25,646 nucleotides of DNA. It comes from Anaerolineae bacterium. GTDB lineage: Bacteria > Chloroflexota > Anaerolineae > B4-G1 > DUEL01. The position numbers and the translations under genes were made by a program. Position 1 is the stretch's first letter. The number at the start of each line of letters is the position of its first letter. Below are positions 1 to 23,055 of the stretch, piece by piece. The stretch covers positions 62,001 through 87,646 of the forward strand of contig JBDOIF010000120.1 of assembly GCA_041082215.1 (NCBI GenBank), in the 5' to 3' direction. The notes under the pieces are model-generated. The model saw only the letters and a list, made by a program, of their open reading frames with translations. It did not search any database and had not been told where the DNA came from.

Positions 1-1787
1 TAGGTCCCTGGCGGCGTTGCCGGGTTGAGGTTCAGGTCGAAATGGGTCTCCACCACCTCATCCATCTCCCATCGGTCCGGCGGGTATCGGTCGAAGAGGT
101 CGGGCCGGCGGTCCATATTCCCGCCCCACACATTGAAGTCCCCGTCCACCACACGGACCAGGGGGCGGAAGGGGGTAGGGGCGATCTGGGCCTGCCGACG
201 CCAGTAGAGGACGGCGTGGATCCAGTTGCTGGGAGGATGGGAGAGCCGCTCGGTGGGTGGGAGGCTCCGGGCATCGAGCCGGTAGCCGACCAGACAGAGG
301 CCGTTCTGGAAGCAGAGGTCCAGCGGCACGGCGGTTTCCGGAAGCGCAGGGTAGGTAAAGCGCATCTGGTAGCCGATGAGGGCGATCTGGCCCGCGTTGG
401 GGTACTGCTCCGTGATGACCGGGAAGGCTGCGGCGGCCACCTCTCGCAGGTGATGGCCAGGGGCCATCGCCTGGTCCTGGTGCAACACCAGCCACAGCCG
501 GTCGTAGTGTTGGGCCATCTGCTCGTAGAAGGGCCAGGGATCGTACGGGTCGTATGTGAATCCCTCGACCTCTGAAGTGCCCCGGTAGTACCGTTCCAGA
601 AGCCGGGTGTTGTAGTAGGCGGAGACGACGGCTACGTCGTTCGGGCCTTCGTGGGCCTCGATGTAGCTGGCGATGAACCGCCAATCCCCCCGTTGCATTG
701 CCGGGTCGGTGAGGTCGCGCACCAGCCCTCCGATCATCAGCCCGCCCAGGGCGAGGAGGAGAACCCCCAGCGGCCGCCAGAGACGGGCCAGGGTTTCGAC
801 CCCATATGCCACCAGCAGGAAGAGGGCCGGCACGACAGCGGAGAGGTACTTGGCGGTGTAGACCGGCACGCGGAAGGAGATGATGTAGAAGAGAAGCACG
901 GGCAGAAGGGCGTGGACGGCGACCGCCCATCGCTCCTTCTTTCCCAGGAGAAGCGCCGCCGCACCGACCAGGGCCAGGCCAGCGGGGAGGAGAAAGGCCG
1001 GCCAGGAGACCGTCGGCACGGAGAGCCGGTAAAAATAGTTCCCTAAGGCGTCCCGCAGCAGGGTCCCCAGCGGCACGAACCCCCGCCAGATGTCGCGCGG
1101 CTCATAGTACTGGATAAGCTGCCAGCCAATCTTCAGGAGAGGGAGGTGGGCCAACCCCAGGAGGAGCATCGTCGCCAGATAGGCCAGCAGCCGTTTTCGC
1201 CTCTGCCAGCCCAGGAAGAGGGCCATCACCGCCTGGCTTGCTACCAGAAAAACGCCGAAAAGGTGGCTGTAGAACACCGTCGAGGTGAGGGAAGCAAAGA
1301 GCAGCCAGCGCCACCAGCCGCCCCGCTGGAAAGCCTCTGTGAGGGCCAGGCTGGAAGCGACGGCGACCAGCATGTGGAGGGCGTACATCTTCGCTTCCTG
1401 GGCAAACCACAGGGCGAAGGGGGAGAAGCCCCAGAGCCAGACCGCCACCGCGCCTGCCCGCGCCGTCGCCAGCCGCCGTGCCCAGCGGAAGAGCAGCGGC
1501 ATCGTCAGCACCGAGCAGATGGCTGAGAGGTAACGGACGGCGAAGTCGGAGTCCCCCACCAGATGTCGCCACCCAAAGAGAAGCAGATAAAAGAGGGGGC
1601 CGTTGTGGGAAGGATGGATGATCGTGCGCGCGGTCTCCATGAAGCTCCCTTCCGTGAAGTGGAGGGCCATCACCTCATCCACCCACATGCTCTGGAGGGT
1701 CAGCGTGCCGGTCCGCAGCCCGTAGGCGATGAAGAGCAGGGCCAGGAGGCCGATGTTCAGGGTTGTGTGCTGTCTGGTCGATTTCAT
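1..1787 (-). CDS. GT-C membrane glycosyltransferase (ArnT/PMT_2-like) with C-terminal extracytoplasmic module; 3' end runs off the window
   Basis: Absent from the ORF track because there is no stop in the window. Manual translation from ATG 1787 gives MKSTRQHTTLNIGLLALLFIAYGLRTGTLTLQSMWVDEVMALHF...HNGPLFYLLL...SDFAVRYLS, i.e. TM1 plus a WxDE loop. The window edge reads, in the same frame, ...YPPDRWEMDEVVETHFDLNLNPATPPGT, like the C-terminal module of its neighbours. Confidence 0.85.
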   Translation of the reverse strand, partial: MKSTRQHTTLNIGLLALLFIAYGLRTGTLTLQSMWVDEVMALHFTEGSFMETARTIIHPSHNGPLFYLLLFGWRHLVGDSDFAVRYLSAICSVLTMPLLFRWARRLATARAGAVAVWLWGFSPFALWFAQEAKMYALHMLVAVASSLALTEAFQRGGWWRWLLFASLTSTVFYSHLFGVFLVASQAVMALFLGWQRRKRLLAYLATMLLLGLAHLPLLKIGWQLIQYYEPRDIWRGFVPLGTLLRDALGNYFYRLSVPTVSWPAFLLPAGLALVGAAALLLGKKERWAVAVHALLPVLLFYIISFRVPVYTAKYLSAVVPALFLLVAYGVETLARLWRPLGVLLLALGGLMIGGLVRDLTDPAMQRGDWRFIASYIEAHEGPNDVAVVSAYYNTRLLERYYRGTSEVEGFTYDPYDPWPFYEQMAQHYDRLWLVLHQDQAMAPGHHLREVAAAAFPVITEQYPNAGQIALIGYQMRFTYPALPETAVPLDLCFQNGLCLVGYRLDARSLPPTERLSHPPSNWIHAVLYWRRQAQIAPTPFRPLVRVVDGDFNVWGGNMDRRPDLFDRYPPDRWEMDEVVETHFDLNLNPATPPGT

Positions 1788-1789
1788 AT

Positions 1790-1859
1790 GTCAGGCGTCA
1801 AGCGTCAGGCGTCAAACATCAGGTGTCAAACGTCAGGCGTCAAACGTCAGACGTCAGGC
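1790..1859. repeat. Tandem heptamer repeat, 10 units of consensus GTCARRC (STRR-like)
   Basis: Units read directly: gtcaggc gtcaagc gtcaggc gtcaaac atcaggt gtcaaac gtcaggc gtcaaac gtcagac gtcaggc. The array fills the intergenic gap and contains the upstream gene's stop codon. Confidence 0.95.
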
Positions 1860-4141
1860 GTCGGGTGGCGGGGGATGTTGAGGGCCAGGAGCACGGCTGC
1901 GCCCGCTGCCAGCGCCAGCCCCACCTGGAGGGAGCGGGGGAAGAACCGCATCCTCACCCGGTGGTCCCCCGGCGGGATCAGGACACCGCGGAAGGTGGCG
2001 TCGGTCCGATAGATCGGCACAGGCTCTCTGTCCACCTCGGCACGCCAGCCGGGGTAGTATACATCCGAGAGCACCAGCAGAGCTGGCGCGTCGGTGTGGA
2101 CGACGAAGACCACCTCGTTGGGGCTGTACCGCCCCACCTCGATTGTGCCGTTCCCTTCTCCCTCCAGCCGGGGGCCACCCTCCACCACCGCCACCTCTTC
2201 TGGCCGGAAGTCGGGGGAGAGCACGCGCCGGAACGCCTCCCCGAAATCCTCTGCCGGCTCGGTCCGATAGACCAGCCAGACGCGGGGCAGCGCCAGGGTG
2301 TTCAGATGGACGTCCACCACCTCATCCTCGATAAACACCGGCCAGATCCCCTCTCCGCCCGGCGGCTCCCCCTTTGCCACTATGATATACTTGATTCCCA
2401 AAAGGCGGTACCCGGCCGAGGTCTTGGAAGGGAGCGACCAGTAGAACTGTTCGAGGGGGTAGAGGGCGAGCGGATCGCCCGACCCCTGGAGGGTCTCAAA
2501 CCCCTGCACCTGCAGGACTTCCGGTGACCAGAGGTGTCGGGCCGTCGGGTCGGTGTCCACGCGGAACCAGCCCGGATCGCTCTGGAGGAAGGCGAGCGCC
2601 CCCCCGTGGTCGGGGCCGGCCAGTGGAGGCGAGGGGTCGGCCTCGACCAGCGAACCTGTCGCCACCAGCTCGCCGATCAGCAGGGCCACGACCCCGGCCA
2701 GGGTCCACTGCTGCCTCCACCGCAGCCAGGCCCATCCAAGCCCGGCCAGTCCCAGGGCGAGGAGGGCCGAGAGCCGCAGGCTGAGCCGGGCCATCTCCGC
2801 CGGCTGCCCGGCCGGGAAACCTGCGACCAGGACAGGCGCGGCGATCCAGAGGACAATCCCCCCGCCGACCAGCGCCGCCGTCCACCCCCGGGTCCGCCAC
2901 CGTGCGGCGTCACAGGCCAGCACATCTCCCCCCAGGCCGGCCAGGAGGGCCAGGCTGAAAGCAGCGATGAAGACCGCCCGGGCCGTCTTCCAGGATTCGG
3001 CGAAGAGGGGCCAGTCGGCCACCAGGGGGTAGAGCGGCCCCTGATGCCCCACCGCGAAAAGCACCGCCAGTCCCCCCAGCCCCAGCCAGAAGAGGGCACG
3101 GCGGGGCCGGGCGAGCACCCCCAGGACGGCCAGGTAGAGCGCCACCGCGCCGACATAGACCTTCTCCACCCGGTTTACTCCGAACCAGGTCCCTTCCACA
3201 CCGCGGCCGTGGAGGTAGGGGGCCAGGCTATCGGCCAGGAGGGCGGGCAGGAACTCGTATCCCCGGCGGAGCTCTCTGGGCATCAACGAACGGACCGTCC
3301 ACGGCAGCCGCTCGACCCCCGGCAATGTCATCGGCGCAGAGAGGGCGAAGCCGACCATCCCCGCCAGCGCCAGCCGACCGAGCCGAAGCGGGAAGGGGAG
3401 CTCCCGCCCCCTCCCCACAGGGGCCAGCACGGCCCAAAGTCCGTAGAGGCCGGCAGCGATCAGCCCGTAGAGGGAGACCTGGCCGTGGCCGGCCAGCGCC
3501 ATCAGGGCAAGGGGGACGCCGCCGAGGGCTGCCCGTCTCCACGACCGTGCTTCCAGTGCCCAGTCCACACCCAGGAACGACCAGGGGAGCCAGGCGATGG
3601 CGTCGTTGATCTGAGGGTGGCCCAGATGGACGATGAGGGGGTCGGAGAGCATGTAGGCCACACCTCCTGCCAGCCCTGCCGGGGTCGTCAGTCGGAGGCG
3701 GGGGGAGCGGGTGAGGTAGAGGTACATCCCCACCCCCGCCAGCAGCACCCCGACCATCCCCCGCAGCAGCACCGCCTCTACGGGCGGCGGGGAGAGCAGG
3801 AAGAGGGGCCAGTTGAGGGGATTGAAGAGGCCATACTGGCCCTCGGAGAGGATCGGGTCCCCCGCCGCCAGCAGGGGGTCCCAGAGGGGGAAGACTCCCC
3901 GTCGGACCTGGCTGGCGATAAAGGCCCAGACGGGGTAGAGCTGTCCCCACAGGTCGCCTCCCCCTTTGGGGAAGGCGTGGCCGGCAAGGAGGACTGGCCA
4001 GAAGAACAGCGCCACGGCGGTGGTGAGGAGAAGCACTGCACCGGCATCCCGCCCCCGCTGCCGGCATCCGGGCAGGCGGGTGGTGAGCCAGGCCAGGCCC
4101 GCTCCGACGACACCCAACCCGATCCACACCCCAGGTCGCAT
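1847..4141 (-). CDS. YfhO-family GT-C membrane protein (764 aa)
   Basis: Motifs GGDLWGQLYP, FPLWDPLLAAGDP, LFNPLNW, AGHGQ and C-terminal LVLSDVYYPGWRAEVD...FRGVLIPPGDHRV followed by a final TM helix are typical of YfhO-like proteins. GGAGG RBS precedes ATG 4141. Confidence 0.85.
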   Translation of the reverse strand: MRPGVWIGLGVVGAGLAWLTTRLPGCRQRGRDAGAVLLLTTAVALFFWPVLLAGHAFPKGGGDLWGQLYPVWAFIASQVRRGVFPLWDPLLAAGDPILSEGQYGLFNPLNWPLFLLSPPPVEAVLLRGMVGVLLAGVGMYLYLTRSPRLRLTTPAGLAGGVAYMLSDPLIVHLGHPQINDAIAWLPWSFLGVDWALEARSWRRAALGGVPLALMALAGHGQVSLYGLIAAGLYGLWAVLAPVGRGRELPFPLRLGRLALAGMVGFALSAPMTLPGVERLPWTVRSLMPRELRRGYEFLPALLADSLAPYLHGRGVEGTWFGVNRVEKVYVGAVALYLAVLGVLARPRRALFWLGLGGLAVLFAVGHQGPLYPLVADWPLFAESWKTARAVFIAAFSLALLAGLGGDVLACDAARWRTRGWTAALVGGGIVLWIAAPVLVAGFPAGQPAEMARLSLRLSALLALGLAGLGWAWLRWRQQWTLAGVVALLIGELVATGSLVEADPSPPLAGPDHGGALAFLQSDPGWFRVDTDPTARHLWSPEVLQVQGFETLQGSGDPLALYPLEQFYWSLPSKTSAGYRLLGIKYIIVAKGEPPGGEGIWPVFIEDEVVDVHLNTLALPRVWLVYRTEPAEDFGEAFRRVLSPDFRPEEVAVVEGGPRLEGEGNGTIEVGRYSPNEVVFVVHTDAPALLVLSDVYYPGWRAEVDREPVPIYRTDATFRGVLIPPGDHRVRMRFFPRSLQVGLALAAGAAVLLALNIPRHPTPDV

Positions 4142-4157: not shown

Positions 4158-6413
4158 CTACGGCCTTACCTCCACCTCTGCCAGCGGGATGGCGTCGTTG
4201 GCCAGGCGCGCTCCGCTGGCATCGAAGGCCGGAAGCCGTTCCCCCGTCTCCAGGCTGTAGAGTCCCACCAGAAGCGTGTACCGTCCCGGCGGGAGGTCGT
4301 TCGGAAGCGCCACCACCCGTGGGTCAGCGACCATATCTCCGGCGGCCCAGAGCTGGGTGGGATAATCCCCGCCCATCGGCGGCCCGTCCCCCTGGGCCAT
4401 CGGCAGGCCGTCCTCAGCGGCCAGATGGACGAAGACGTTGAGCGGTCGGCCCAGCGGAGCGTCGCAGGCCCAGTAGAGGGTGAAGAGGAGCGTCTCACCG
4501 GGGCGGACCGGGCCGCTCCAATCTGGCTCCCAGGCCACAAGCCGCACCCCATCCCCCAGCCGGCAGGCCGCAGGGAGGCCTGTGGGGGTCGCAGGTTCCC
4601 GCGCCGCCAGCCGCACTGGCCCCAGGCTGACCGTTTCCCGTCCGTCGCTGGCAGCGAGCCGTGGGCCATCAGGCAGGTAGAAGCCAGTGTCCAGCCGGAG
4701 ACCCACGGGGGCGTCGGCGTCTGCCTCGATGGGCACCGGGACCGTATCGGCGATGACTTCACCGGGCTGCCAGCGGGAGGTGGGGTATCGCCCCAGACCG
4801 GGGTGGGTGTCCCGTGCGCCGATCTTCGTGCCGCCCCGTCCGAACACCTGAACAAAGAAGGTGTAATCGGTGTTCGAAGTACCCAGGACCTGCCAGTAGA
4901 AAGTAATTCGCAGGACGTCGCCGGGATGGAGAGGGTCGGGCGCGGTGTCGTAGCCGATAAGGTGAGCCAGCCCCGGATAGGTCACATCTGCCGGGTGTCG
5001 AGGATTGACCTCATCGGCGGAGGCGTATCGGGGCGGCGGGGCATAGGCCGGCGCCAGCACACCGACCAGCCCATAGACCGCCAGCGCCAGCATTGCCAGG
5101 GCCAGAATCGGCAGCAGGGCCGCCCGGCGGCGGTCCGGGAACCACTCGGCAAGCCCCAGGACGTAGAGGGGAGCCAGGACGGCCAGCGCCACGAAGAGGT
5201 AGCGGCCGAAGTCGGCGGCGGCGCTGACCGTCATCCGGGCGAAGTTGACCGCAAGCGCGACGAGCGGGGCAGTGGCGAGGAGTCCCATAGCTGCCAGAGA
5301 GCCTTTCCTCTTATCTGTCCGATGACGGGCCCACAGGAGCAGGAGCCCTCCCAGGGCCGCCAGCCCGACCAGTCGGGCCAGGCCGTAGATGGGATGCGGG
5401 AAAGGAATCTGGCCATAGCCGAAAACGCCCCACAGCGTGTTGTGGAGGAAGCCCAGCTCCCGCGCTGCCGCCAGGAGGTCGGGGGCGTTTGCCCGCACCC
5501 CCCATACCCCTGTCTGACGCACCATCGCCGTCGGCTCGCCGTAGAGGAGCCAGTTACGGACAAACCACCATCCGCCGATCAGCAACGCCAGCCCCACGGC
5601 GATCCCGCTCAGGCGGAAAGCCTCCCGCCATCCCCTGCGGCTCCGGTCGGCCAGGGAGTGGTAGAGGAGGGCCAGCATTGCAGTGGGCATTACCAGCAGG
5701 CAGGTCAGTTTGCTCAGGATGCCCAGGCCCATCAACACGCCAAGCGTTACCGCCCGCCGGGCCGTCGCGCCCCGGGTGAGGATGCGGGCGGCGACGTGAA
5801 GCATCGCCGCAGAGACCAGGTTGGCCAGGGGGTCGTCGTGGACCGAGCCGCTGATGTAGAGGAACATCGGGTTGAAGGCGACCAGCGCTGCGGCCGCGAC
5901 AGCCAGCGGCGGGGCGATGCCGCTCCCCCGGCCACCATACACCGCCATAATGACCTCACAGGCAGTGGTGTAGACCAAAAGGACGGTCCCGGCCCCCATC
6001 AGCAGGGAGAGCCAGCGGATCAGGTGAACCCCCAGCGCCACGTCCCGGTAGGGGAACGATTCCAGCATCGGATTGTGCAGGTAGAGGCTCTTGTTGTCCA
6101 CCCCCGGTTCCCAGAGCCGGTAAGCCCAGAAGGGATTGGTCCGCTCCACGATAGCATTGAAATGCTCGTTCGATACCCAGAATGTAAGCAATGCGCCCAG
6201 CGCGTAGTAGAGCGGAGGGTGATGGGCCTTGGTGGGCTTGCCCGGTTCCAGCACCGGCAGCCGGCGCTCTTCGATGAAGTGGCGGATGTTGGCGTAGTTG
6301 AGCGATTCGTCCGGGCTTTCAAAAAGGGGGTTGACCACGCTGTAGGCCCCGCCGAGGCCCAGATATACCAGGAGGATGACGGCTATCCACCGGCGCGCGG
6401 TGTGTTTGCTCAC
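4158..6413 (-). CDS. GT-C glycosyltransferase (ArnT/PMT/DUF2142-like) with two C-terminal extracytoplasmic modules (751 aa)
   Basis: FESPDE after TM1, HHPPLYY, VHDD, LSKLT and FGRYLF motifs, with many TM segments. The GTG start overlaps the upstream TGA (GTGA 6410-6413). Confidence 0.88.
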   Translation of the reverse strand: MSKHTARRWIAVILLVYLGLGGAYSVVNPLFESPDESLNYANIRHFIEERRLPVLEPGKPTKAHHPPLYYALGALLTFWVSNEHFNAIVERTNPFWAYRLWEPGVDNKSLYLHNPMLESFPYRDVALGVHLIRWLSLLMGAGTVLLVYTTACEVIMAVYGGRGSGIAPPLAVAAAALVAFNPMFLYISGSVHDDPLANLVSAAMLHVAARILTRGATARRAVTLGVLMGLGILSKLTCLLVMPTAMLALLYHSLADRSRRGWREAFRLSGIAVGLALLIGGWWFVRNWLLYGEPTAMVRQTGVWGVRANAPDLLAAARELGFLHNTLWGVFGYGQIPFPHPIYGLARLVGLAALGGLLLLWARHRTDKRKGSLAAMGLLATAPLVALAVNFARMTVSAAADFGRYLFVALAVLAPLYVLGLAEWFPDRRRAALLPILALAMLALAVYGLVGVLAPAYAPPPRYASADEVNPRHPADVTYPGLAHLIGYDTAPDPLHPGDVLRITFYWQVLGTSNTDYTFFVQVFGRGGTKIGARDTHPGLGRYPTSRWQPGEVIADTVPVPIEADADAPVGLRLDTGFYLPDGPRLAASDGRETVSLGPVRLAAREPATPTGLPAACRLGDGVRLVAWEPDWSGPVRPGETLLFTLYWACDAPLGRPLNVFVHLAAEDGLPMAQGDGPPMGGDYPTQLWAAGDMVADPRVVALPNDLPPGRYTLLVGLYSLETGERLPAFDASGARLANDAIPLAEVEVRP

Positions 6414-8635
6414 GGCCAGACCACCTCAGCCAGAAGGATGGCGTCGTTGGCCAGGCGCGCTCCACTGGCATCGAAGGCCGGGAGCCGCTCGCCGGTCTCC
6501 AGCAGGTACATCCCCACGTACAGGCGATAGGTCCCCGGTGCCACCCCGTCCAGGGAGAGCCACCGCGCATCGGCGATGGCCTCGCCGGGGGCCCAGAACG
6601 AGGTGGGGTAATCCCCTCCCGCCGGGGGGCCGTCGGCCTGGGCGACCGGCAGGCCGTCGGGACCGACGAAGTGGACAAAGACCGTATAATCCTGACCCGG
6701 CGGGGCCAGGCAGGCCCAGTGGAGCGTGAGGCGCAACCCGTCCGGCTCCTGCGCCAGGTCGTAGCCGGTCAGCGCAATGGCCTCCCCCAGCCGGTAGTCC
6801 AGAGCGACGGAGGGGGCCGGAGGAGGCTCCGTCGCCGCCAGCTTCAGCCAGCCCGCCGTCGCCGTGCCGATGGGGGTGCCGCTCCCATCCACCGCCGTCA
6901 ATCGTTGCCCCGTCTCCCGGTCGTATAGCCCCACATCCAGACGCAGCCGGCTGGGGGCAGGGGCTTCCGGGTCCACCGGGATGAGCACTTCGTCCAGAAT
7001 CACCTGTCCCGGTTTCCAGAAGGAGGTGGGATAATGGCCCAGGCCGGGATAGGTATCCCGCTGCCCCACCTTTGCCCCCTGGCGGCCGAACAGCTGGGCA
7101 AAAAGGACGTAGTTCTCGGGGGTCGTTCCCAGCACTTCCCAGTGGAGCGTTGCCCGGACCGTGCCGCCGGGTTCCACGGCTGTCGGCTCCAGGTCGTACC
7201 CCCGCAGGCGGGCCAGCGGTTCGCCGTCTTCCAGATAGGTCCAATCCAGCCGGTAGGTGGGTTTGGGCGCGGTGGCGGCGTCATAGATCGGCGGGCGGGC
7301 ATAGGCGGGGATCAGGAAGCAGACGAGCCCTGCTGCTCCCAGCGCCAGCATCCCCGCCGTGGCCCCCAGCGCCAGGTAGCGGTGCCAGCGCCGGGGCAGC
7401 CATTCGCTCAGGCCGGTGAAGAGCAGGAGGACGATGGATGGGAGGACCGGGAAGAGGTACCGACCGAAGTTGGGCATCGGCCGGAGGAAGCGGCGGATGA
7501 CCATCGGGGCGAAGGTGAGGAGAAAGGCGAGAAGCAGGAAAGCAAGGGGCAGGAGAACAGAGCGCCGGGAAGAGGCGGGGCAGGAGAGGACCAGGCGGAC
7601 CAGTCCCACGATGGCCAGCATAGCGATGCCGTCCAGCAGGTCGTAAATCCATCTGGAAAGGGGGATCTGGTTGTAGCCCAATCGGCCCCAGAAGGAGGTG
7701 CGCAGCCAGTAAAGGTCAGGCCCCAGGTCGGCGAGGGTGGGGGGGCGGTCGCGGAGTCCCCACTCCGTCATCTCCCGCGCCGTGCCGGTGGGGTCGCCGT
7801 AGAGAATCGTCTGGCGGACCATCCAGGGCACGATGAAGAGGGCAGCCACGCCGAAGACCACCAGCCCCCAGCGGAACAGACTGCGCCACGAACGTTCCTG
7901 CCAGGCGGCCCAGACCACCGTCAGCCCGGCGGCGGGGATCAGCGCGGCAACGGTGAGCTTGGAAAGCCAGCCCAGCCCCAGCGCAGCCCCCAGCCCGACG
8001 CATCGGCGCAGGGTCGGCCCCCGCTGCAGGATACGCACCATCCCCCAGAGCGCCAGCGCGCCAAAGAGGGAGGCCCCGTTGTCGTCGTTCACCGCGCCGG
8101 AGATGAAGAGGAACTCGGGGATGAAGGCGGCCAGCCCCGCCGCCCCCACCCCCATCTCCGGCCGGTCCGGGAAAACCTCCCGCCCGATGCGGTAGATGGC
8201 CCAGATGGTGAGGGCGCCCATCAGGACGGAGAGGAGCCGGACCACCCGCAAGCCCAGCCAGGTGTCGCTCGTGCCGAACCGGTCGTCTTCGGGGTGGAGG
8301 TAGAGGTTTTTGTTGTCCCGCCCCACCTCGCCGAACTGGTAGCCGAAGAAGGGGTTGTGCCGGTCGGGCCAGAGGTGGAGGTCGTTTTCCCCCACCCAGA
8401 AGGAAGCCAGCGCGCCGATAACGTAGTAGAGAGGGGCGTGGTGGCCGAATCCCCGTCCGCCCCCCTCCTCCAGGACCGGCGGATGGCCAGTTTTGACTAG
8501 GGTGCGGATGTAGTCGTAGTGGTAGATTTCATCGGGGGCCTCCAGGGTGGGCGTGGCGATGGCGTAGGCCCAGCCCAGGGCCACGAAGAGGATGAGGATC
8601 ACCGTCAGCACCCTGCGGGCAGCCTGCTCGCTCAT
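6410..8635 (-). CDS. GT-C glycosyltransferase, paralogue of 4158-6413, with two C-terminal modules (741 aa)
   Basis: LEAPDE, HHAPLYY, NKNLYLH, VNDD, LSKLT and FGRYLF motifs. Start reassigned to ATG 8635 (MSEQAARR) because of a GGAGG RBS and an ATGA overlap with the upstream stop. Confidence 0.88.
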   Translation of the reverse strand: MSEQAARRVLTVILILFVALGWAYAIATPTLEAPDEIYHYDYIRTLVKTGHPPVLEEGGGRGFGHHAPLYYVIGALASFWVGENDLHLWPDRHNPFFGYQFGEVGRDNKNLYLHPEDDRFGTSDTWLGLRVVRLLSVLMGALTIWAIYRIGREVFPDRPEMGVGAAGLAAFIPEFLFISGAVNDDNGASLFGALALWGMVRILQRGPTLRRCVGLGAALGLGWLSKLTVAALIPAAGLTVVWAAWQERSWRSLFRWGLVVFGVAALFIVPWMVRQTILYGDPTGTAREMTEWGLRDRPPTLADLGPDLYWLRTSFWGRLGYNQIPLSRWIYDLLDGIAMLAIVGLVRLVLSCPASSRRSVLLPLAFLLLAFLLTFAPMVIRRFLRPMPNFGRYLFPVLPSIVLLLFTGLSEWLPRRWHRYLALGATAGMLALGAAGLVCFLIPAYARPPIYDAATAPKPTYRLDWTYLEDGEPLARLRGYDLEPTAVEPGGTVRATLHWEVLGTTPENYVLFAQLFGRQGAKVGQRDTYPGLGHYPTSFWKPGQVILDEVLIPVDPEAPAPSRLRLDVGLYDRETGQRLTAVDGSGTPIGTATAGWLKLAATEPPPAPSVALDYRLGEAIALTGYDLAQEPDGLRLTLHWACLAPPGQDYTVFVHFVGPDGLPVAQADGPPAGGDYPTSFWAPGEAIADARWLSLDGVAPGTYRLYVGMYLLETGERLPAFDASGARLANDAILLAEVVWP

Positions 8636-10851: not shown

Positions 10852-10879
10852 GTAGGGGCACGGCTCGCCGTGCCCCTAC
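10852..10879. repeat. GTAG-class REP-like palindrome (possible terminator or RNA-stabilising hairpin of the PKD gene)
   Basis: GTAGGGGCACGGC-TC-GCCGTGCCCCTAC is a perfect 13-bp inverted repeat starting with GTAG, 21 nt past the stop at 10901. Confidence 0.8.
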
Positions 10880-15014: not shown

Positions 15015-17671
15015 CGTACCACTTGTATCCTGTTGATTTCGACGGCTCTCACTTCTGCCCCAGGCACATCCGCCAACACCGGCAGCCGCTCCAGGCTCGG
15101 CCAGAGGTAAACACCGGTCAAGAGCCGGTACTCTCCTGGGATCAGGGTTTCGGGCAGCCGTAGGACGACGGAGTGACCATAAACAGCTTCCACCGGCCAG
15201 AAGGGCAAGAGCCGGTCCACTAATGGTGTATCGTCCTGGGCAGACAGGCTACCGTCAGGAGACAGCAAATGAACGAAGAACACGTACCGCTCATCTACGG
15301 GTACCGACGCTTGCCAGTACAAGGTTACTGTCAGTGTGTCACCGGGTCGAAGCGTTGGGCTACTGATATTCCAACCTCGCAGGGAGACCTGATCTCCGAG
15401 GTTCACCTCCACGCTCATCCCGGCCGGTTGGTCTTCCAGAGGAACAAAGCGGATCTGGTCGAAAACGAAAGTACGACAGGTGAACCGGACAGCCTCGGAT
15501 TCGCAGAGTGGCTGCTCCTCTCTTGTCGGGGGAGATAAGAGAGCATCGGCCCAACAACGCGGATCATCTAGCGTCTCAATACAACCGTCCGCTGCCCGGA
15601 AATGGAATGTGTTCATCCCCTGGTTTAATCTGACAGGTTGCGTAGTGTAAATAACCCGGTCCCCTACGATGAAACTGTCAATATGCTTATCTCCCTGATA
15701 AATCTCCAGCACCGGAAATGTCATATGAGAGTCAACGGTGAATTGCAGGCTCCCTGTCGTTGAAAGTGTTGAGTATAAGTAAAGACTTCCCCGCTCATCC
15801 ATCCATCGCCGCCAGCGGCTGCCGTCATGCTCTGGAGGATGCCAGCCCTGTTGGCTCAGGGCATAGAGAAAGGGAGTATCAGGTGAGGATGCATCCTCGG
15901 GCACAGGGAACACGGCCACCAACTCATCCTCGTATTTCGGAGGGCCGAGCAGGGTTTGGATAAAGTCGCGGTAGAAGATATCTGCATCCGGGGACAGTTT
16001 CTCGTATGTCAGGTAGTGAAAGACCACATAATCAACATTGAAATGGCGAAGCCACGCAACTCGCTGGGTTTGATCTGGCCGAGGGACGATGTCGCCTGGA
16101 GCTGGGTCTGGTTCAGCAAGGCCAAGGATGGCCTCCGACCACGGAATCTCCTCCGGCACGATGCGATGCGTTAAGCCATCGACAATAGGGCGCGGCACGA
16201 ACGTCTGGTAGTAGAGAGCGCGGTCGTTTACCTGGCGGCGTGTCATCGGAACGTGGAGCAGTGCACCGTCCCCGGGCTCCGCGCGGATGCGCTGGATGCT
16301 AGGAGGAATCTCAGCCGTCCCTGTTGGGAAGGGCCAGATGATCACGTATTCAAAGAGTGTCCCTAACACGACGATCCCAATGAAAAAGTAAGCCCATCGG
16401 GGGCGGCGTGCTGTCCAGGACAGGAGATGGGACATGCCATAGGCGGCGAGAATTGAGACAGCGAACATCGTTGTGCCGTTCAGACGACCCGGTGTACGTC
16501 CGATCCCAAACATGGGTAACGTCTTCAATAAAGCATAGGGAAGCACAATATAACTTTGGTGCTCGTCTACCTGAAGAACCTCTAATTTCCCTCCCATCTT
16601 GAGTAGGGGTCCTAGAGACAGAACTGCAGTGGATATGGCGAGTATGCCCCAAATCTTCCCCTCTCGCTTCTGGCGTATTGCTCCCCACACCGCCAATGTG
16701 GTCGCAATGAGGCCAGGATATGCAAGACCTTCCCGCAAGGAGCGTATATTGGGAAAGATTGCTTTTGAGAACGAAGACCACCACCCCACCAGGCGCAGTA
16801 AGGGGTGATACGGGGAAGGCGTAAAGAAGGCCAGAAGATCGGTGGCATGTTCGACGGTTCCGGGCTCCAGGAGGTAGGTTTCCTGATCTAGAGAAAGGAA
16901 CACCGTTGGGAGGAGAAAAGGAGCGACAACCAGGAAACAGATCAAGAAGATGCCAACCACCCACGCTATGCGGCGACGATCGAAGAGGGCTTTCCTCAGC
17001 TCCAGTCGCTCGAGGCAGAGTACAATTGCTGTGAGAGGAAGTAGAAAATACGCTAGGTGCATCACGTGAATCAGGCTGGCAATAGCAAGGATAAAGATAG
17101 CAGGAAGAGCAGTCCTCCATCCGGGCGTCCGGATGGCTCGGCGCAAGAATAGCACATAGAGGGGAAACCACTGCATACTGATCTGCGGGAGGTGCCCACC
17201 CAACACATGCCCCATCTTGTTGGGGAAGATGGAAAAAATCAGGCCCCCTACCAGCCCGGCACGGGGATCTCCTGTCAGCTCAGTGCAAAGCCAATACATT
17301 GTGAAGCCACTAAGAACAAGGGCCGATAAAACCTGAAGATTATAGGTGATCGCAGGTGAGACCAACAAAGAGAAAGGCAAAGCAAGCAGATACATTCCTG
17401 TCATCGAGAGAACAAACGGGTGCTCGACGCCATAGGGATGGTTCATCAATGAGAGATAGCCCAGCTCTTTGTCAGAATTGAGGATGGCTTCCTTAGCCCA
17501 CCAGAGGGCCCACGTATACGCATAAGCGTCTCGATATTCTTCGCCGACAATCCTTGTATTCATATACAGAGGGATAGGGTAGGTCACGGCAAGCGTAACA
17601 AAAGTGTACAAGCCCAAAGCAGCAAGGGCCCAGCAGAGCCGCGAGCAGTGTTTTTTGGGGGACTTCTTCAT
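15011..17671 (-). CDS. GT-C membrane glycosyltransferase, same subfamily as 13299-15014, plus C-terminal module (886 aa), lower GC
   Basis: Motifs RDAYAYTWALWW, GHLPQISMQWFP, GRTPGRL and ALYYQTF. C-terminal module LRGW...TLYWQA...FFVHLL...PGEYRLLTGVY. Starts 3 nt after the upstream stop. Confidence 0.82.
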   Translation of the reverse strand: MKKSPKKHCSRLCWALAALGLYTFVTLAVTYPIPLYMNTRIVGEEYRDAYAYTWALWWAKEAILNSDKELGYLSLMNHPYGVEHPFVLSMTGMYLLALPFSLLVSPAITYNLQVLSALVLSGFTMYWLCTELTGDPRAGLVGGLIFSIFPNKMGHVLGGHLPQISMQWFPLYVLFLRRAIRTPGWRTALPAIFILAIASLIHVMHLAYFLLPLTAIVLCLERLELRKALFDRRRIAWVVGIFLICFLVVAPFLLPTVFLSLDQETYLLEPGTVEHATDLLAFFTPSPYHPLLRLVGWWSSFSKAIFPNIRSLREGLAYPGLIATTLAVWGAIRQKREGKIWGILAISTAVLSLGPLLKMGGKLEVLQVDEHQSYIVLPYALLKTLPMFGIGRTPGRLNGTTMFAVSILAAYGMSHLLSWTARRPRWAYFFIGIVVLGTLFEYVIIWPFPTGTAEIPPSIQRIRAEPGDGALLHVPMTRRQVNDRALYYQTFVPRPIVDGLTHRIVPEEIPWSEAILGLAEPDPAPGDIVPRPDQTQRVAWLRHFNVDYVVFHYLTYEKLSPDADIFYRDFIQTLLGPPKYEDELVAVFPVPEDASSPDTPFLYALSQQGWHPPEHDGSRWRRWMDERGSLYLYSTLSTTGSLQFTVDSHMTFPVLEIYQGDKHIDSFIVGDRVIYTTQPVRLNQGMNTFHFRAADGCIETLDDPRCWADALLSPPTREEQPLCESEAVRFTCRTFVFDQIRFVPLEDQPAGMSVEVNLGDQVSLRGWNISSPTLRPGDTLTVTLYWQASVPVDERYVFFVHLLSPDGSLSAQDDTPLVDRLLPFWPVEAVYGHSVVLRLPETLIPGEYRLLTGVYLWPSLERLPVLADVPGAEVRAVEINRIQVVR

Positions 17672-17674: not shown

Positions 17675-20131
17675 TTAATGAACCTCCACTGACGGCAGGA
17701 GCAACTGCGTCCCGACCATCTCGTCATTCACAGTTATCGGCAGACGCGCCATGGTTCGTGAGTCATATACGCCCAACTGCACCCAATAACGGCCTGGCTC
17801 TATATCCCCGGCAATCGGGACAGGATGGTGCTGTACCAACAGATCGCCTGTGTGCCACCCGATGGTCGGTACATCCAGGCCATCATACTGGCAACGGACA
17901 TTGCCGCTGTCATCGAGAACCTGAACGAATATCTTGAGTGGCGTGCCGTCATCTGTTACGACCCGCCAGTAGGTAACCATCGCCCATTCCTCACCGGGCT
18001 GAATAGTCGGAGTGAGGGTTCGGTAACCCAGAAGCTCGAGCCGGTCACTGAAGCGGACTGGCGGGAGAATCGCCTGGCGTAAATCAGGGGCTTCGCTAGG
18101 GACGAAGGTCATTTCGTTCGAGAGAAATAGCAGCGAACTGGCGGAGATTGTACCTATCCATCCGGCGCGCTCTGTAGAAGCCGCCTTTAGACGGTAGAAC
18201 ACAATCTGCTCTGTTCCATCGCGCTCCGGCATTCGCGTGACGGCATCAGTTTGCTCCCACAGCGGACACCACGAGGGAAATATTCCATCCCGCAGCACGT
18301 ACCACACTTCGGGTTCTGACGGGAGGATACACGAAGTTGCCGGAAGGAACCAACGAAGCCGAAGATCGTTGGTGTGCCACAGAGTTTCGAAGGCCGTAGG
18401 GGGGACCTGATCAACCTGGATGCCTCCCAGTGCCACGGTGACGGTAGGCGCGTCAGGATCGAGCAACCGAGGCACCTCGTAGATTAGGATCGAGTATCCT
18501 GGCTGGGCCACCGGCTCTTGATCGAGAAACCACGCGAATAGCTCTTTGTTGTCGAACAATAGGGCCTGAAGGTTTGTAGCACTGATGGCGTACACACCGG
18601 GTGGCGGGTAGTCGGGATGATAAACCCGCGTGAAAAGGTCGGTCAGATCGTCGGGCTTGCTGGGTATGGCGCGGTAAGGGATGCGATACTGCCACGGACG
18701 GGATTCGCCGAACCAGGAGAGATAGATCTGCGAGATGTTATGTTCCGATATATACCTTTCCAGGGCAGGCAGGTCCTGTCCCCAATCGAGGTTCGAATCC
18801 ACCAGCACCCGATATCCATTACTCGGTCCGACCAGTTCGTTGAAATAGGCAAGATAATCGGGGTAAATGATTAAATTGGCGACCATCAGCCAACCTACAA
18901 GTGCCATTGGAAGGCAGCGGAGTCGGTGCGGAAGCGTGCCCAACATCGCACTCCGGCCAGCAAAGACGAGCAGGGGGGGGAGCATCGGCAACAGCAGACG
19001 ATAGCCGGTGTTGAGAGGACTGAGGAGTGCAAGGCAAAAATAGCCGCCACCTGTTGCGAGCAGGACCGCGTCGCCGAAATGAAGAGAGATGTGTCGTCGC
19101 ACTGTGGACGCCGAGGCCAGGGCAATCGCTGCTAAAGTGGGGAGAGGTGTTTTGACAAGGAAGGCAACAATGAAGTAGGGCCACCAACCCCCTTTGTAAT
19201 GAACCCCGAGCAGGAAGGCATCTTGGGGGACGCTGTAATGTTGGAGCAACCTGGCCAATTCATCGAAATAGGCAGGTGCAGGCAAGCATGTCCCATTCCA
19301 GCGTGGCACCGGGCCGAAGTCGGCTCCGTGGATAAGCCAAATGGTGACGGCAGCAATCCCGCCCATGGCTGTGACTAATACTATGCTAGCAAACGCGCGC
19401 TTCACCAGGGAAAGGGCGGCAAGCCCGCGGAATTGCCCCTTCCACACAGGCTGCCGCACCTGCACTAGGCTGAAGGCCAGGTAAATAGGGATGAGGAAGC
19501 CAGTTGTGAAGCGAGTTGAGCCGGCCATCCCCAGAGATAGCCCAGCCACCGCCAGCCGCCCCCAGCCAGGGCGCATCCAGAAATGGTAAAGAGCCCAAGA
19601 ACTCAGGAGTACGGAAAGCGCCGTGGCAAAATCGAGAGTGAGCAATTGGCCATTTGCCAGCAGGTTTGGATCGAAGGCGCACAGCGCCGCCGAGAGCACG
19701 GCAGCGCGTCTTCCGTACAACTCAGTGGTCCACCGGGAGACCAGGGCGACCATCAACACCATGAGAAACAGGGTCGGTACACGAGCCAGGAACAGAACAC
19801 GGTTCGTGTTGCTTCGGTAGAACAACAACTCCCGACCACAACTACGAGCTGTACCATTTGGCCAACAGGCGTGATCGGTCGGTGCGTTTAGTCTCGGTTC
19901 GGTCAGTAGAAAGACCGTCCCAATTATCGGGCCCAGCGCCGGGTGGTTGGTCTGCAACCAGTAGTTCCCTTCTTTCCAGATAGCGATGCCTTCGCCGATG
20001 TAGGCTTCCTCGTCGAAAGTGGCAGATTTGACCCGCACACTGCTTAATGCCAGCCCGAACGAGATCAGCACCAACATCATAACAGCCCAGATGGGGAGTG
20101 CCTTTAGTTCAAGAGAACGCGGGCGCATCAT
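17675..20131 (-). CDS. GT-C glycosyltransferase (ArnT/PMT-like) with C-terminal module (818 aa), lower GC
   Basis: SATFDE, NHP, LTLD, WWPYF...KTPLP and LVDSNLDWGQDL motifs. Start reassigned to ATG 20131 (MMRPRSLE; alternative 20128), which overlaps the DUF2723 stop as ATGA. Confidence 0.85.
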   Translation of the reverse strand: MMRPRSLELKALPIWAVMMLVLISFGLALSSVRVKSATFDEEAYIGEGIAIWKEGNYWLQTNHPALGPIIGTVFLLTEPRLNAPTDHACWPNGTARSCGRELLFYRSNTNRVLFLARVPTLFLMVLMVALVSRWTTELYGRRAAVLSAALCAFDPNLLANGQLLTLDFATALSVLLSSWALYHFWMRPGWGRLAVAGLSLGMAGSTRFTTGFLIPIYLAFSLVQVRQPVWKGQFRGLAALSLVKRAFASIVLVTAMGGIAAVTIWLIHGADFGPVPRWNGTCLPAPAYFDELARLLQHYSVPQDAFLLGVHYKGGWWPYFIVAFLVKTPLPTLAAIALASASTVRRHISLHFGDAVLLATGGGYFCLALLSPLNTGYRLLLPMLPPLLVFAGRSAMLGTLPHRLRCLPMALVGWLMVANLIIYPDYLAYFNELVGPSNGYRVLVDSNLDWGQDLPALERYISEHNISQIYLSWFGESRPWQYRIPYRAIPSKPDDLTDLFTRVYHPDYPPPGVYAISATNLQALLFDNKELFAWFLDQEPVAQPGYSILIYEVPRLLDPDAPTVTVALGGIQVDQVPPTAFETLWHTNDLRLRWFLPATSCILPSEPEVWYVLRDGIFPSWCPLWEQTDAVTRMPERDGTEQIVFYRLKAASTERAGWIGTISASSLLFLSNEMTFVPSEAPDLRQAILPPVRFSDRLELLGYRTLTPTIQPGEEWAMVTYWRVVTDDGTPLKIFVQVLDDSGNVRCQYDGLDVPTIGWHTGDLLVQHHPVPIAGDIEPGRYWVQLGVYDSRTMARLPITVNDEMVGTQLLLPSVEVH

Positions 20132-23055
20132 TTCCTCATCTCTAACATTCTCCACCACCCCAGCGGCACCACCTCGAACCGCTCGTCCATCGGCAGAAGG
20201 GTGGTCATCCGGAAGCCCTCGTAGGCCGCCAGCACTGCCTGGACCCGCTCGCCGCTGAATCCCTCCGGAACCGCGAGCAGGTGACGGTCCCTCACCTTGC
20301 TGCCGCGGATCCACTTCAGGGTAGGAATGGCCCCCATCGCTGGCTGACTGTCGTGGATGGCCAGCCACCACCCCTCCTCGTCCATCAGCCGCACGCTGGT
20401 GTGGTCGTCCTGCACGAGGGGCCGCAGCCCCACCAGCTCCAGGTCCACCACCACCGGCTCCCCCGGCGGCGCGGGCCGCCCCTGTACCCCCACCAGCGCC
20501 AGGTCCTCCCCCAGCGCCACGAACCGCACATCCGCCCCCGGTGTGGGGAGCGAGACCTGGCCCACCGCCGCGCCCCACGGCCCGGCCGCCGCCACAGCCC
20601 GACCGGCCCCATTGGTCAATCCCAGACGCAACTCCTCCGCCCCTCCTCCCAGGTCCACCGCGACAGTCTGGTAGGCCCCTGCGGGCAGGGGCGGCAGCGC
20701 CACCTGCACCTCCTGCCCGTCGGCGGACCGCACCCGGGCCCGCCATCCCTCCCCCACCGGTCCCCGCCACCGCAGATAGATCCGCAGTTCGTCCGGCTCG
20801 CTCCGGTCGTAATCCACCCCCACCAGCGTCGGTCCATCAGAGAAGGGGGTGGAAAGCCGGTGGAGCGTAAAGGGCGCCCGGTCCAACGGCTCCACCTCCA
20901 GCCAGGCCAGCCGCACCACCGTCTCTCCCTCAGGGGTGGGCACATCTTCAAAGCCCGCCTCCGTGGTGCGGTAGGCCCCCAGCACCACCTGATACCGGCC
21001 TGGGGCCAGGGTCGGGTAGAGGGGAAGCGCAAACCGCTCGAAACGGACCTCGCCGGGGGCGACGTCGGCCTGCAATGTCCGGTCGGCGTTGGCTATGTAC
21101 CCTCCCCCTGCGTCCAGCAGCCGCAGGGTGAGGGAGAGGGAAGGGTCCACCGCCTCTGCTGCCCGCCAGGCCACCGCCGCCTCGACCACCTGCCCCGGAT
21201 GGAATCGGCCCTGTTCGAGCGTATAGCCGACAACCTCGACACCGCTGAAGGAAGCCTCGACAGAAGTGAGGGGAGCGGTCGGAGCCTCCAGCGGCCGGGG
21301 ATGGACGCGGAAGCCGGTCCACCACGGCTCGGTGATGTATCCGTCGAACTCGTAGAAGTGGGTCAGGAGCACCGGCCGTCCCGTTTCCGCCTCCTGAACA
21401 CGCCGCTGCCAGGTCTGACGGTACTCCTCCCCCGGCACGTTGTAGACGTAGCGCGCCTCCACGTCGGGCCGCAATCCCTCGACCAGTTGGAGGTAGCGGA
21501 GGGGGGTGAACCAGTGCCAGTCGGCCAGGATCAGCGCCCCTTCCGGCGCCTCCTCCAGGAGCGGCTCGACCGTCTCCCGCGCTACCCGGTCCTCTGCCAG
21601 TTCGAAGAAACTGGGGGCGTGGGCCCAGCCGTTGAGCAGCCCCGCCCACAGGGTAACGGCGGCCAGAAGGGAGAACCAGGGAATCCCGAACCTCGAACCT
21701 CGAACAGTGATCGGGGAGAGTCCGACGGCGACGGCGGTGGGGAGGTAGGCCGGCATCATGTACTCGACCGTCTGCGGGGCGCGGTAGGTGATGGAAACGA
21801 AGGTGTGCAGCGCCAGACTCCCCCCCAGCAGGGCGAGGAGCCGCCTGTCCCGCCACACAAGCCCCAGGAGTCCCACCAGGGCCAGGGCCAGGAGGAGCCC
21901 GTTGAACTGGAAGGGAAAGAGGGTTGGAAGCAGGGCCAGCCGGTGGGGGAGGTCGGTGGGGTTGGCGAAGGCGAACATGTCGCCGGAGAAGCCCTGGGCA
22001 AAGACGTGGTGGATGAGTCCGGTAAGGGTGTCCCGCCCTGGCGGGGCGAAGGGCGCCCCCTGGGCGGCGCGGATGGGGATATAGGCGAAGGGAAGGAGAC
22101 CTGCCGCGAGCGCCACCAGCGCCCCTTTCCACCAGCGGCGGGGCTGTATCACCAGCCGGGGTTCCACCAGCACCAGGTACAAAAGAAAGAAGACGCTTAC
22201 AAAGGCCAGCGAGGGGTGATGTCCCAGTCCCAGTCCCAGCCCCAGCCCCAGGAGGACGAGCGCCCGATCCGCCTCCCGCCGGTCGGCGGCGGTGGAGAAG
22301 CGGGAGAGGGCATACAGGCAGAGGGCGGCGAAGAAGGCGGTGGGGGTTCGGACATTGGCGATCGTCGCCTGGGCCCAGAAGGTGGTGGCAGTGCCCAGGG
22401 CGAGCGATACCGCCAGGCCGGAGATCAGGCCAACAGAGGGAGAGGCACCCAGCCGATGCGCCCATCGCCGGGTTGCCTGTGCCACCAGCACCAGCGTGCC
22501 AGCCGCCAGCAGCCCGCTCATCAGGTTGAGCCGATAGGCGGGACTTCCCCAGGGGAAGAGGCGGATGAAGAGGTGGCCTGCCATCGTGTAGAGGGGATAC
22601 CCCGGCGGGTGAGCCACCCCCAGCGTCGCCGCCACCGCCTGGAACTCCCCCGCATCGGCAGGGAGGACGTCCGGGGCGGCGGTGAGGAAGTAGAAGAGGA
22701 GGGCCACGGCGGAGGTCGCCCCATCGGCCGCCGGCTCCACCCACCGGGGAAGGGAGAGTTGCTCGCCGCAAGCCAGCCAGATCAGCACGGCAAGCAGGGC
22801 CAGGCCGACCGCCGCTTCCGGGTCCCGCCGCGGCCAGATGATGTAGGGGAGCAGGAAGAGGAGCGGCCAGAGACGGACGCCCCGCCGGGCCAGCTTCAGG
22901 CCGAGGAAGAAGCCGCCCGTCCCCGCCAGCCCCCCCATCGCCACCACCAGTGGCAGGGGCAGGGGCCGACAGACCCCCTCCAGCACGACGCGGGCGAGGA
23001 AGAGCGCGGCGATGGACCCTGGCGCTCCCCCCAGTTGCCTGTTCCGGGAAGTCAT
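20128..23055 (-). CDS. DUF2723 / TMEM260-like GT-C protein with tandem C-terminal modules (975 aa)
   Basis: Hallmark DAGEFQAVAATLGVAHPPGYPLY, plus TFWAQATIAN, GHH and LRYLQLVEGLRPDV. Start reassigned to ATG 23055 (MTSRNRQ), 9 nt after a TATAAT box. Confidence 0.88.
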   Translation of the reverse strand: MTSRNRQLGGAPGSIAALFLARVVLEGVCRPLPLPLVVAMGGLAGTGGFFLGLKLARRGVRLWPLLFLLPYIIWPRRDPEAAVGLALLAVLIWLACGEQLSLPRWVEPAADGATSAVALLFYFLTAAPDVLPADAGEFQAVAATLGVAHPPGYPLYTMAGHLFIRLFPWGSPAYRLNLMSGLLAAGTLVLVAQATRRWAHRLGASPSVGLISGLAVSLALGTATTFWAQATIANVRTPTAFFAALCLYALSRFSTAADRREADRALVLLGLGLGLGLGHHPSLAFVSVFFLLYLVLVEPRLVIQPRRWWKGALVALAAGLLPFAYIPIRAAQGAPFAPPGRDTLTGLIHHVFAQGFSGDMFAFANPTDLPHRLALLPTLFPFQFNGLLLALALVGLLGLVWRDRRLLALLGGSLALHTFVSITYRAPQTVEYMMPAYLPTAVAVGLSPITVRGSRFGIPWFSLLAAVTLWAGLLNGWAHAPSFFELAEDRVARETVEPLLEEAPEGALILADWHWFTPLRYLQLVEGLRPDVEARYVYNVPGEEYRQTWQRRVQEAETGRPVLLTHFYEFDGYITEPWWTGFRVHPRPLEAPTAPLTSVEASFSGVEVVGYTLEQGRFHPGQVVEAAVAWRAAEAVDPSLSLTLRLLDAGGGYIANADRTLQADVAPGEVRFERFALPLYPTLAPGRYQVVLGAYRTTEAGFEDVPTPEGETVVRLAWLEVEPLDRAPFTLHRLSTPFSDGPTLVGVDYDRSEPDELRIYLRWRGPVGEGWRARVRSADGQEVQVALPPLPAGAYQTVAVDLGGGAEELRLGLTNGAGRAVAAAGPWGAAVGQVSLPTPGADVRFVALGEDLALVGVQGRPAPPGEPVVVDLELVGLRPLVQDDHTSVRLMDEEGWWLAIHDSQPAMGAIPTLKWIRGSKVRDRHLLAVPEGFSGERVQAVLAAYEGFRMTTLLPMDERFEVVPLGWWRMLEMRK
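20317..20508. repeat. Intact copy of the ~190-bp direct repeat (partner at 13051-13241)
   Basis: Direct manual alignment of the two segments. Confidence 0.9.
21680..21707. repeat. Short heptamer repeat inside the DUF2723 CDS
   Basis: ggaatcc cgaacct cgaacct cgaacag; encodes VRGSRFGIP between TM helices. Confidence 0.55.

Follow-up and report, generated by a model that had tools for sequence, protein, structure and literature searches.

The stretch of DNA analyzed here, called the window (25,646 nucleotides; G000:C29:62001-87646, where G000 is the organism's own genome, 3.5 Mb and 96% complete), comes from an Anaerolineae bacterium and carries nine genes for membrane glycosyltransferases of the GT-C type around one gene for an exported protein. 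Most of the nine enzymes end in copies of the same Ig-like domain, referred to below as the tail, and the array runs past the window edge to a gene of the Wzy_C family (wzy). We put a probability of roughly 0.5 on the reading that these GT-Cs decorate an envelope glycan that is joined or attached by the Wzy_C protein, with the tails holding the acceptor. An earlier note on this DNA had proposed an assembly line for glycosylating surface proteins or an envelope polymer; the shared C-terminal domain is a clue that it missed. Close homologues of the array proteins are labeled Anaerolineae, Thermoflexia, or Chloroflexota, and hot-spring metagenomes hold DNA that is near-identical to the window.

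The tail was found through BLAST among the array proteins, as a repeated C-terminal Ig-like domain of ~140 residues. Profile searches place it on seven of the nine GT-Cs in the window, on 10 of the 12 in the whole locus, and on 38 open reading frames (ORFs) of the genome, which together hold 61 copies, and five GT-C subfamilies carry this same domain. The family is large (35,179 clusters at 50% identity), has no Pfam model, and returned only unnamed Chloroflexota clusters when a protein atlas was searched. Folded alone, the tail gave an AlphaFold model with a predicted local distance difference test score (pLDDT) of 97.2. For this model, Foldseek listed carbohydrate-binding domains (CBDs) of Wzt at ranks 1 to 5, and the best match by VIA-align was the Wzt CBD of Aquifex (6o14), with Z 11.1 and a root-mean-square deviation (rmsd) of 2.5 over 115 aligned residues. 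At the sequence level, the tail profile matched one built from 27 Wzt_C domains of relatives with a probability of 79% (E 1.6e-5, score 35.8, 84 columns), compared with scores of 17.2 or less for the controls (PKD, reversed, and 20 shuffled). Wzt_C also led the Pfam families in a scan of 111 tail sequences, eight of which matched it at E <=1 (best E 3e-5). The best tail in the genome scores 18.5 bits against the PF14524 cut-off of 30.4, which only the genome's true Wzt (on C128) passes. Distant kinship with the Wzt CBD, as opposed to membership in its family, is probable from these profiles and models, and the tail looks like a glycan-binding module. The two share an Ig-like topology and a profile similarity that is weak but exceeds the controls. 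Wzt CBDs, however, are cytoplasmic parts of ABC-transporter ATPases, whereas the array tails stay below the Pfam cut-off, are fused to GT-Cs and not to an ABC ATPase, and are predicted to lie outside the cytoplasm, where a PknB-like kinase carries them as well. Single weak tail matches in distant genomes were considered as possible cross-matches to Wzt, which was rejected because the six loci fetched encode GT-C-like membrane proteins with a diverged tail.

The kinase just mentioned (G000:C7:88483-90378; L200:2484-4379, minus strand) is a PknB-like Ser/Thr kinase with a transmembrane (TM) helix, two PASTA domains, and then the same tail, and it is possible that it serves as a sensor of envelope glycan. 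A small protein without a glycosyltransferase part has two TM helices, a Pro/Thr linker, and one tail (G000:C100:35282-36139, in L201; also L034:1599-2513). Its G000 copy precedes the gene of a protein with a YLP-box, a C-terminal motif described below, and a similar gene lies near wzy in G229. The occurrence of the tail behind two PASTA domains on the kinase, and on a two-helix membrane protein, indicates that it is extracytoplasmic and portable. Passages of a report on the GT136 enzyme ORF12 of Citrobacter youngae describe the Ig-like or carbohydrate-binding module (CBM) tails of the GT-Cs ORF12, EmbC, and AftD as binding the acceptor polysaccharide (PMC11127046).

The second line of evidence is the coupling of the tails to wzy. 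This gene (gene O), which lies outside the window, encodes 503 residues with 11 TM segments and scores 50.7 bits for PF04932 (cut-off 31.7). Across 80 loci from GTDB, the upstream neighbor of wzy is visible in 71, and in 35 of these it is a GT-C or tail gene of the same orientation (N in 15, J in 9, A-like in 5, others in 6), as against one of 73 on the downstream side; the other recurrent neighbors scanned are housekeeping genes. A single copy of wzy is present in 36 of 38 genomes with at least two tails and in none of 34 with one tail or none (by family, 22/22 tail-rich and 0/13 tail-poor), figures that come from 72 genomes of the phylum picked by tail number, with kin that are not independent. 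Tail counts per genome in this survey are lower bounds (up to about 20 were scored). Distance from the query fails to account for the co-occurrence, since 18 genomes of the same class have neither wzy nor tails and both are present in other classes. Peptidoglycan synthesis was tried as a co-occurrence partner and set aside, since murC is present in 70 of the 72 genomes at any tail count and does not discriminate. In the more distant loci L093, L098, L100, L119, and L121, genes for phosphomannomutase, polyprenyl synthase, GT2, GT4, and GDP-mannose dehydratase lie 5′ of the GT-Cs and wzy. Judged by its family, the Wzy_C protein appears to be ligase- or polymerase-like; a search of PDB sequences with it gave no match at E 10. 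WaaL/PglL-type ligases have a His-containing H-N motif in the last large loop. At the corresponding place, gene O has G-V-[AS]-N-V-Y without His (84 homologues), and D445-H446 is conserved further on.

The trio M-N-wzy, just outside the window, is the conserved core of the locus. It recurs in nine relatives (G201, G206, G210, G211, G213, G229, G233, G235, and G237), where D, C, and an A-like gene frequently precede it. Together with the glycan-binding-like tail, this conserved core points more to an envelope polymer, which the earlier note had named as its alternative, than to proteins. In the envelope-glycan reading, ArnC/Dpm1-like GT2 enzymes would load single sugars onto polyprenyl phosphate, and GtrA, EamA-like, or Wzx carriers would flip the loaded sugars outward. 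A backbone would be made by soluble GT2/GT4 enzymes and joined or attached by the Wzy_C protein. Each GT-C would then grip this backbone by its tails and add one sugar or linkage, and strains would exchange GT-C cassettes, so that the decoration varies. The final carrier of the glycan could be peptidoglycan, lipid, or surface proteins.

All nine GT-C genes in the window lie on the minus strand and encode 571 to 975 residues with 5 to 11 hydrophobic segments each. J (20128..23055; 975 residues) is a DUF2723/TMEM260-like (GT117-like) GT-C with D134 in a DAGEF loop and two Wzt-like tails (profile matches at about 20887-21303 and 20134-20547). I (17675..20131; 818 residues) is of the PMT_2 type, with an FDE loop and one tail; H (15011..17671; 886 residues) is YfhO-related and has one tail; and G (13299..15014; 571 residues) is a paralogue of H (28% identity) without a tail. 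On the other side of the exported protein F follow E (8632..10767; 711 residues; PMT_2-type, one tail), D (6410..8635; 741 residues; ExxDE loop, two tails), C (4158..6413; 751 residues; a paralogue of D at 44% identity, two tails), B (1847..4141; 764 residues; YfhO family with PF09586 E 1.2e-13, no tail), and A (3..1787; 636 residues; PMT_2-type, WVDE loop, one tail), whose end lies 126 nt past the window. This agrees with the earlier description of nine co-oriented polytopic GT-C genes around one exported Thr-rich protein with PKD and β-helix parts. The junctions are coupled, as had also been noted, by 4-nt overlaps at J/I, H/G, E/D, and D/C and a 3-nt gap at I/H; the gaps from G to F and from F to E are 388 and 133 nt. 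Likewise, no soluble glycosyltransferase, flippase, or nucleotide-sugar gene was found among the 12 window ORFs scanned. The extent of the array has to be revised: it holds nine GT-Cs in the window and continues downstream of A with M, N, wzy, mreB, mreC, mreD, pbp2, and the DUF2723 gene P (G000:C29:48373-61816). M and N are paralogues of C and D, and with P they bring the GT-Cs of the locus to twelve.

Pfam cut-offs are exceeded for PMT_2 by A, D, E, and I, for YfhO by B, and for the TMEM260-like family by J; C exceeds those for PMT_2 and PF11028 in genome searches only. H gave a weak Pfam match and G none, and the profiles of both align with that of B (H E 3.8e-16, G E 2.7e-17) and with those of A, D, and E (probability 94–97%). 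The atlas clusters nearest to G are unnamed or DUF6311 (32% of members). D was modeled by AlphaFold (pLDDT 94.2) with 13 long helices and two β-sandwiches. Its membrane part matches the solved folds of Pmt4 (Z 24.5, rmsd 3.4, 386 aligned), Pmt2 (23.8), AglB (23.1), ALG12 (22.9), and ArnT (22.4) and, among mycobacterial GT-Cs, those of AftB (19.1), AftA (16.3), AftD (12.9), EmbA (12.2), and PimE (11.4). Because protein mannosyltransferases, AglB, ALG12, and ArnT are matched nearly equally, the fold does not tell the acceptor. The GT-C fold was modeled for D, and the other eight window enzymes are tied to it by Pfam or profile alignment; these links support the view, also that of the earlier note, that all nine are GT-C fold enzymes, predicted to act outside the cytoplasm.

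Eight of the nine have an acidic residue after the first helix that is conserved in homologues (A D37-E38, B D63, C D35, D D35, G D39, H D48, I D40-E41, and J D134), with conservation sets of two to four sequences each for B, G, and H. The subfamilies listed in the earlier note are borne out for PMT_2, YfhO, and DUF2723 by Pfam or profile. E, which belongs to the PMT_2 type, has no DE-type motif. Its loop after TM1 reads SRPxxWxxR, without Asp or Glu, S30-R31-P32 being present in 101 of 101 non-gap rows of a 116-row alignment, and the nearest invariant acid is E58. E may be a non-catalytic partner or perform other chemistry.

Neither a donor synthase nor a flippase was seen among the genes scanned from P to J, and the polyprenol-phosphate sugar synthase of the GT2 family that the earlier note had wanted located nearby has candidates elsewhere in the genome. 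There are 28 GT2 matches, six of which resemble lipid-phosphate sugar synthases below curated cut-offs; ArnC/AglJ/Dpm-like GT2s, below equivalog cut-offs, lie on contigs C84, C18, C146, C46, C42, and C96. Carrier candidates are one GtrA (C133), a Wzx-like protein (C146), and an EamA-like protein (C42), and the genome further holds three LCP matches, one wzm/wzt pair, and a WecA-like gene behind a DUF2298 cluster. We infer that these candidate donor synthases and flippases feed the array. PMT_2 gave 48 matches in the genome, 42 of them over cut-off, and many genomes of the phylum have at least 17 PMT_2 candidates each. The DUF2298 cluster (L132; G000:C135:13400-22700) includes NHL-fused GT-Cs, is followed by upp and the WecA-like gene, and has no tail domain; nor does a 1,593-residue PMT_2-DUF2298 fusion in L129 (G000:C46).

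Arrays or a tail of this kind were found undescribed in the literature searched, which included few subscription papers and no supplements. The array is real and conserved and, as judged from its sequences, appears to be a variant of extracytoplasmic multi-component glycosylation. Known systems of that type (GtrABC, CsbB/GtcA/YfhO, GtlA/GtcA/GtlB, and GT136 ORF12; described in parts of PMC8035078) likewise use GT-Cs with an Asp after TM1 and polyprenyl-phosphate sugars. They have one to three GT-Cs beside a donor synthase and a flippase, whereas here there are twelve GT-Cs of several subfamilies, no donors, one repeated tail, and more than 40 GT-Cs in the genome. ORF12 of C. youngae O1 also carries a C-terminal Ig-like CBM, reported in excerpts of PMC11127046 to bind the acceptor O-polysaccharide. 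The mycobacterial set for arabinan and lipoarabinomannan (EmbA/B/C, AftA-D, PimE) likewise combines many GT-Cs, several with CBMs, on one branched envelope glycan outside the membrane, but no close sequence relationship to the array was found, and the array differs in its Wzt-like tail and in being closed by a Wzy_C gene. B shares the YfhO family with the streptococcal Pgf/PgtC2 proteins, and G and H are profile-related to B; its matches to PgfM1/M2, however, are weak and far below the PgfM cut-offs, its position is not conserved, and the YfhO family also serves teichoic acids. No characterized bacterial TMEM260/DUF2723 member and no work joining a Wzt CBD with GT-Cs or with Chloroflexota were found in the literature searched.

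Several observations weigh against an envelope-glycan acceptor. Besides the way in which the co-occurrence genomes were picked, only 40 of the 80 wzy loci have any adjacent GT-C and about half have none. The Ig domains of alpha-2-macroglobulin, RbmA, complement C3, and GH2 lie within 1 Z of the Wzt match to the tail, 103 of the 111 tail members lack a Wzt_C match even at E 1, and the tail profile retrieved no Wzt sequence in a search of PDB sequences; a tail of Ig-like fold might just as well bind protein domains. J and P are homologous to a protein O-mannosyltransferase, the best fold matches of D are protein mannosyltransferases (tied or nearly so with AglB, ALG12, and ArnT), the exported F recurs inside arrays, and YfhO-family enzymes (PgfM1/PgtC2) glycosylate streptococcal proteins, although also teichoic acids, according to parts of 10.1101/2024.05.05.592596.

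These last points belong to the best surviving alternative, stepwise protein O-glycosylation, in which Ser/Thr residues in folded Ig-like domains of exported proteins (F and further YLP-box proteins) would receive their first sugar from DUF2723 enzymes and the remaining GT-Cs would lengthen the glycan, or in which the Wzy_C protein would act as an O-oligosaccharyltransferase. We consider this possible, though on the doubtful side. J matches PF11028 with E 1.9e-31 (109.7 bits, cut-off 24.2) and the structure of human TMEM260 (9rql) with E 2.9e-20, with D134 aligned to D52 and DAGEF to DSGEL. That J is a true TMEM260 relative, as the earlier note had suggested, is supported by these alignments. 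Mutation of D52 abolishes O-mannosylation of IPT domains by TMEM260, according to passages of PMC10214176, and the genome has five clear DUF2723 genes, with P, outside the window, also matching PF11028. Where J shares PF11028 and the D52 equivalent with TMEM260 (GT117), it differs in its extra N-terminal helices and in what follows the match, which covers J residues 115-532 and ends at J532, residue 460 of the 729 in TMEM260, after which the Wzt-like tails take the place of the C-terminal part. The position of J is also at odds with a role in starting glycans on F: none of 14 F loci (with flanks of 7 kb or less for eight) showed J beside the F orthologue, and J is missing from the G201 array (F-E-D-C-A-M-N-wzy, without B or J-I-H-G). 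Elsewhere it directly precedes wzy in 9 of 71 loci, precedes I in G206, or stands without a GT-C neighbor in several genomes. The proposal that the DUF2723 enzyme initiates on the PKD protein and the others extend therefore found no support, and of the assembly line for surface proteins or an envelope polymer it is the polymer that we favor. Against protein glycosylation there is also the lack of any STT3-type enzyme over its cut-off in the genome and of the His of the WaaL/PglL motif in the Wzy_C protein.

F itself (10901..12910, minus strand; 669 residues) has one N-terminal hydrophobic segment, 11.8% Thr, many conserved Ser/Thr positions, and two PKD stretches. A β-helix is likely; it is weak in F (PF13229 E 0.0064) and over cut-off in two of four homologues scanned, and a search of PDB sequences with F gave nothing useful. 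Its last 40 residues, with the YLP-box VYLPLILRSN, a putative sorting motif of NCBIfam, score 13.1 for NF053834 (over the cut-off of 10) and 14.4 for NF050076 (under that of 15), the whole protein staying below the cut-offs; a YLP pattern drawn up in this analysis is present in 43 of 54 F homologues. Full-length F occurs in 6 of 40 relatives, beside a GT-C gene in three, alone in two, and on a contig too short to tell in one, so that three of the five informative relatives have it in an array. Of eight metagenome loci with full-length F, six (two of them near-duplicates) have it inside GT-C arrays, such as I-H-G-F-C in L175. F thus stands in GT-C arrays more often than not and is not a chance insertion, which is in favor of protein glycosylation. 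Among 18 exported YLP-tailed ORFs, however, only F adjoins a GT-C gene, and one more adjoins a tail gene without a glycosyltransferase part. Genome-wide, about 20-28 exported ORFs have a YLP-box, and 13 pass the NF050076 cut-off. For the archaellin of Litorilinea aerophila, parts of PMC12488501 interpret densities at Thr66 and Thr145 as likely O-glycans, which is consistent with protein O-glycosylation. The tail and the coupling to wzy favor a glycan acceptor over protein glycosylation started by DUF2723 enzymes, and both can be partly true.

Third, the array could be a recombination-prone collection of paralogues that serves several pathways (polymer, protein, and lipid) with no single assembly line, which we judge improbable. 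Stability is confined to M-N-wzy, in many cases together with D-C and an A-like gene, whereas B, J, I-H-G, and F come and go (G201 and G213, for instance, have no B between C and A), and there are at least 41-48 GT-C genes in many clusters of the genome. The GC content at third codon positions (GC3) is 0.64 in I and G and 0.60 in H, compared with 0.81-0.87 in the other GT-Cs. A decayed J copy of 191 nt (13051..13241, minus strand; 89% identical to the 3′ part of J at 20317-20508, and interrupted by a frameshift and a stop) stands between G and F and, with J, brackets this low-GC block. Metagenome contigs break near both copies of the J repeat, and in two runs from a single study the contigs over I-H had, on the whole, under half the depth of their flanks (14.6 versus 33-35 and 8.4 versus 16-19), contig depth being a weak measure. 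Among the joints listed for four runs, none skipped I-H-G directly, and the one RNA run yielded short contigs of low depth that say nothing on transcription. The idea of a recent insertion found in G000 alone was dropped, given J-I in G206 and I-H-G-F-C in L175; replacement at the strain (allele) level or strain variation is likely. A loose collection is hard to reconcile with the recurrence of I-H-G-F-C and of J-I as blocks in genomes that are not related (L172, L173, L175, and L203), with the coupled junctions, and with the same tail in five subfamilies, which suggests one common acceptor.

Finally, it is very improbable that the enzymes modify membrane lipids in the manner of ArnT or move non-sugar groups: ArnT is among the near-tied fold matches of D, an ArnC-like GT2, aminotransferases, and small EamA-like carriers lie near other GT-C clusters of the genome, and E has Arg for the usual Asp in all 101 aligned members, but Chloroflexota lack lipid A and an outer-membrane pathway according to parts of PMC13319060, and one to three large Ig-like domains on dozens of paralogues are hard to fit to small lipid acceptors.

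The genes mreB-mreC-mreD-pbp2 (G000:C29:48373-55762) lie on the same strand 3′ of the array, with 13 nt between wzy and mreB. A link to the elongasome was rejected as a general feature, as none of the 17 relatives fetched (L011 in part) showed a GT-C array 5′ of mreB. The DUF2723 gene P directly follows pbp2 in G206, G208, G230, and G233, and two relatives (G222, G218) have an ORF of ~818 residues and lower GC3 between mreC and mreD (L009:2747-5203, L013:3425-5884). In G201, the array is followed downstream by a very long ORF (at least 5,709 residues; L023:2870-19999; G201:C13) with pentapeptide-like repeats at its cut start. Divergent from J, a CarH/LitR-like MerR regulator with B12-binding domains (23258-24553, plus strand; CarH match below the NCBIfam cut-off) has a good sigma-70-like site on its side (TTGACA-16-TATACT, 23212-23239). 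It is followed by a TIGR01777-family NAD-dependent epimerase-like protein (24310-25458, plus strand), which probably starts ~80 codons in and for which no link to the array was seen. Consensus scans on the minus strand gave a sigma-70-like site 5′ of J (23065..23092; TTGTCT-16-TATAAT, extended TG), a terminator-like hairpin behind F (10852..10879; 12-bp stem, T-rich tail), and a promoter-like site after it (10804-10776). Promoter-like sites number 8 versus 3.7 +/- 2.1 in shuffles and terminators are not above shuffles, and neither was used as evidence. The gap between B and A (1770-1870) holds short 7/14-nt tandem repeats of the GCGTCAA/ACGTCAG type, and similar units stand at ORF starts elsewhere (L128:4473, L005:8282).

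A joint reading, speculative and unlikely to hold in all its parts, would be that much of Chloroflexota builds one envelope layer by means of a single Wzy_C protein and dozens of GT-Cs that dock on the same acceptor through a Wzt-related domain outside the membrane. The tail of the kinase would sense this glycan, E would be one of the enzymes in the assembly line, non-catalytic or chemically altered, and the link between the glycan and YLP-box surface proteins such as F would be made by TMEM260-like enzymes. Cryo-tomography of Anaerolineae has revealed inner, outer, and protein layers, the composition of which is stated as unknown in parts of PMC13319060, and the reference list of PMC3368417 includes a paper titled on a peptidoglycan-polysaccharide complex in Herpetosiphon. 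For all its size, the tail family has no Pfam model, and the genome offers bacterial TMEM260 homologues with the catalytic Asp as well as a GT-C subfamily in which Arg replaces that Asp. For the biology of the Anaerolineae, the locus offers concrete candidates for the builders of their envelope layers.

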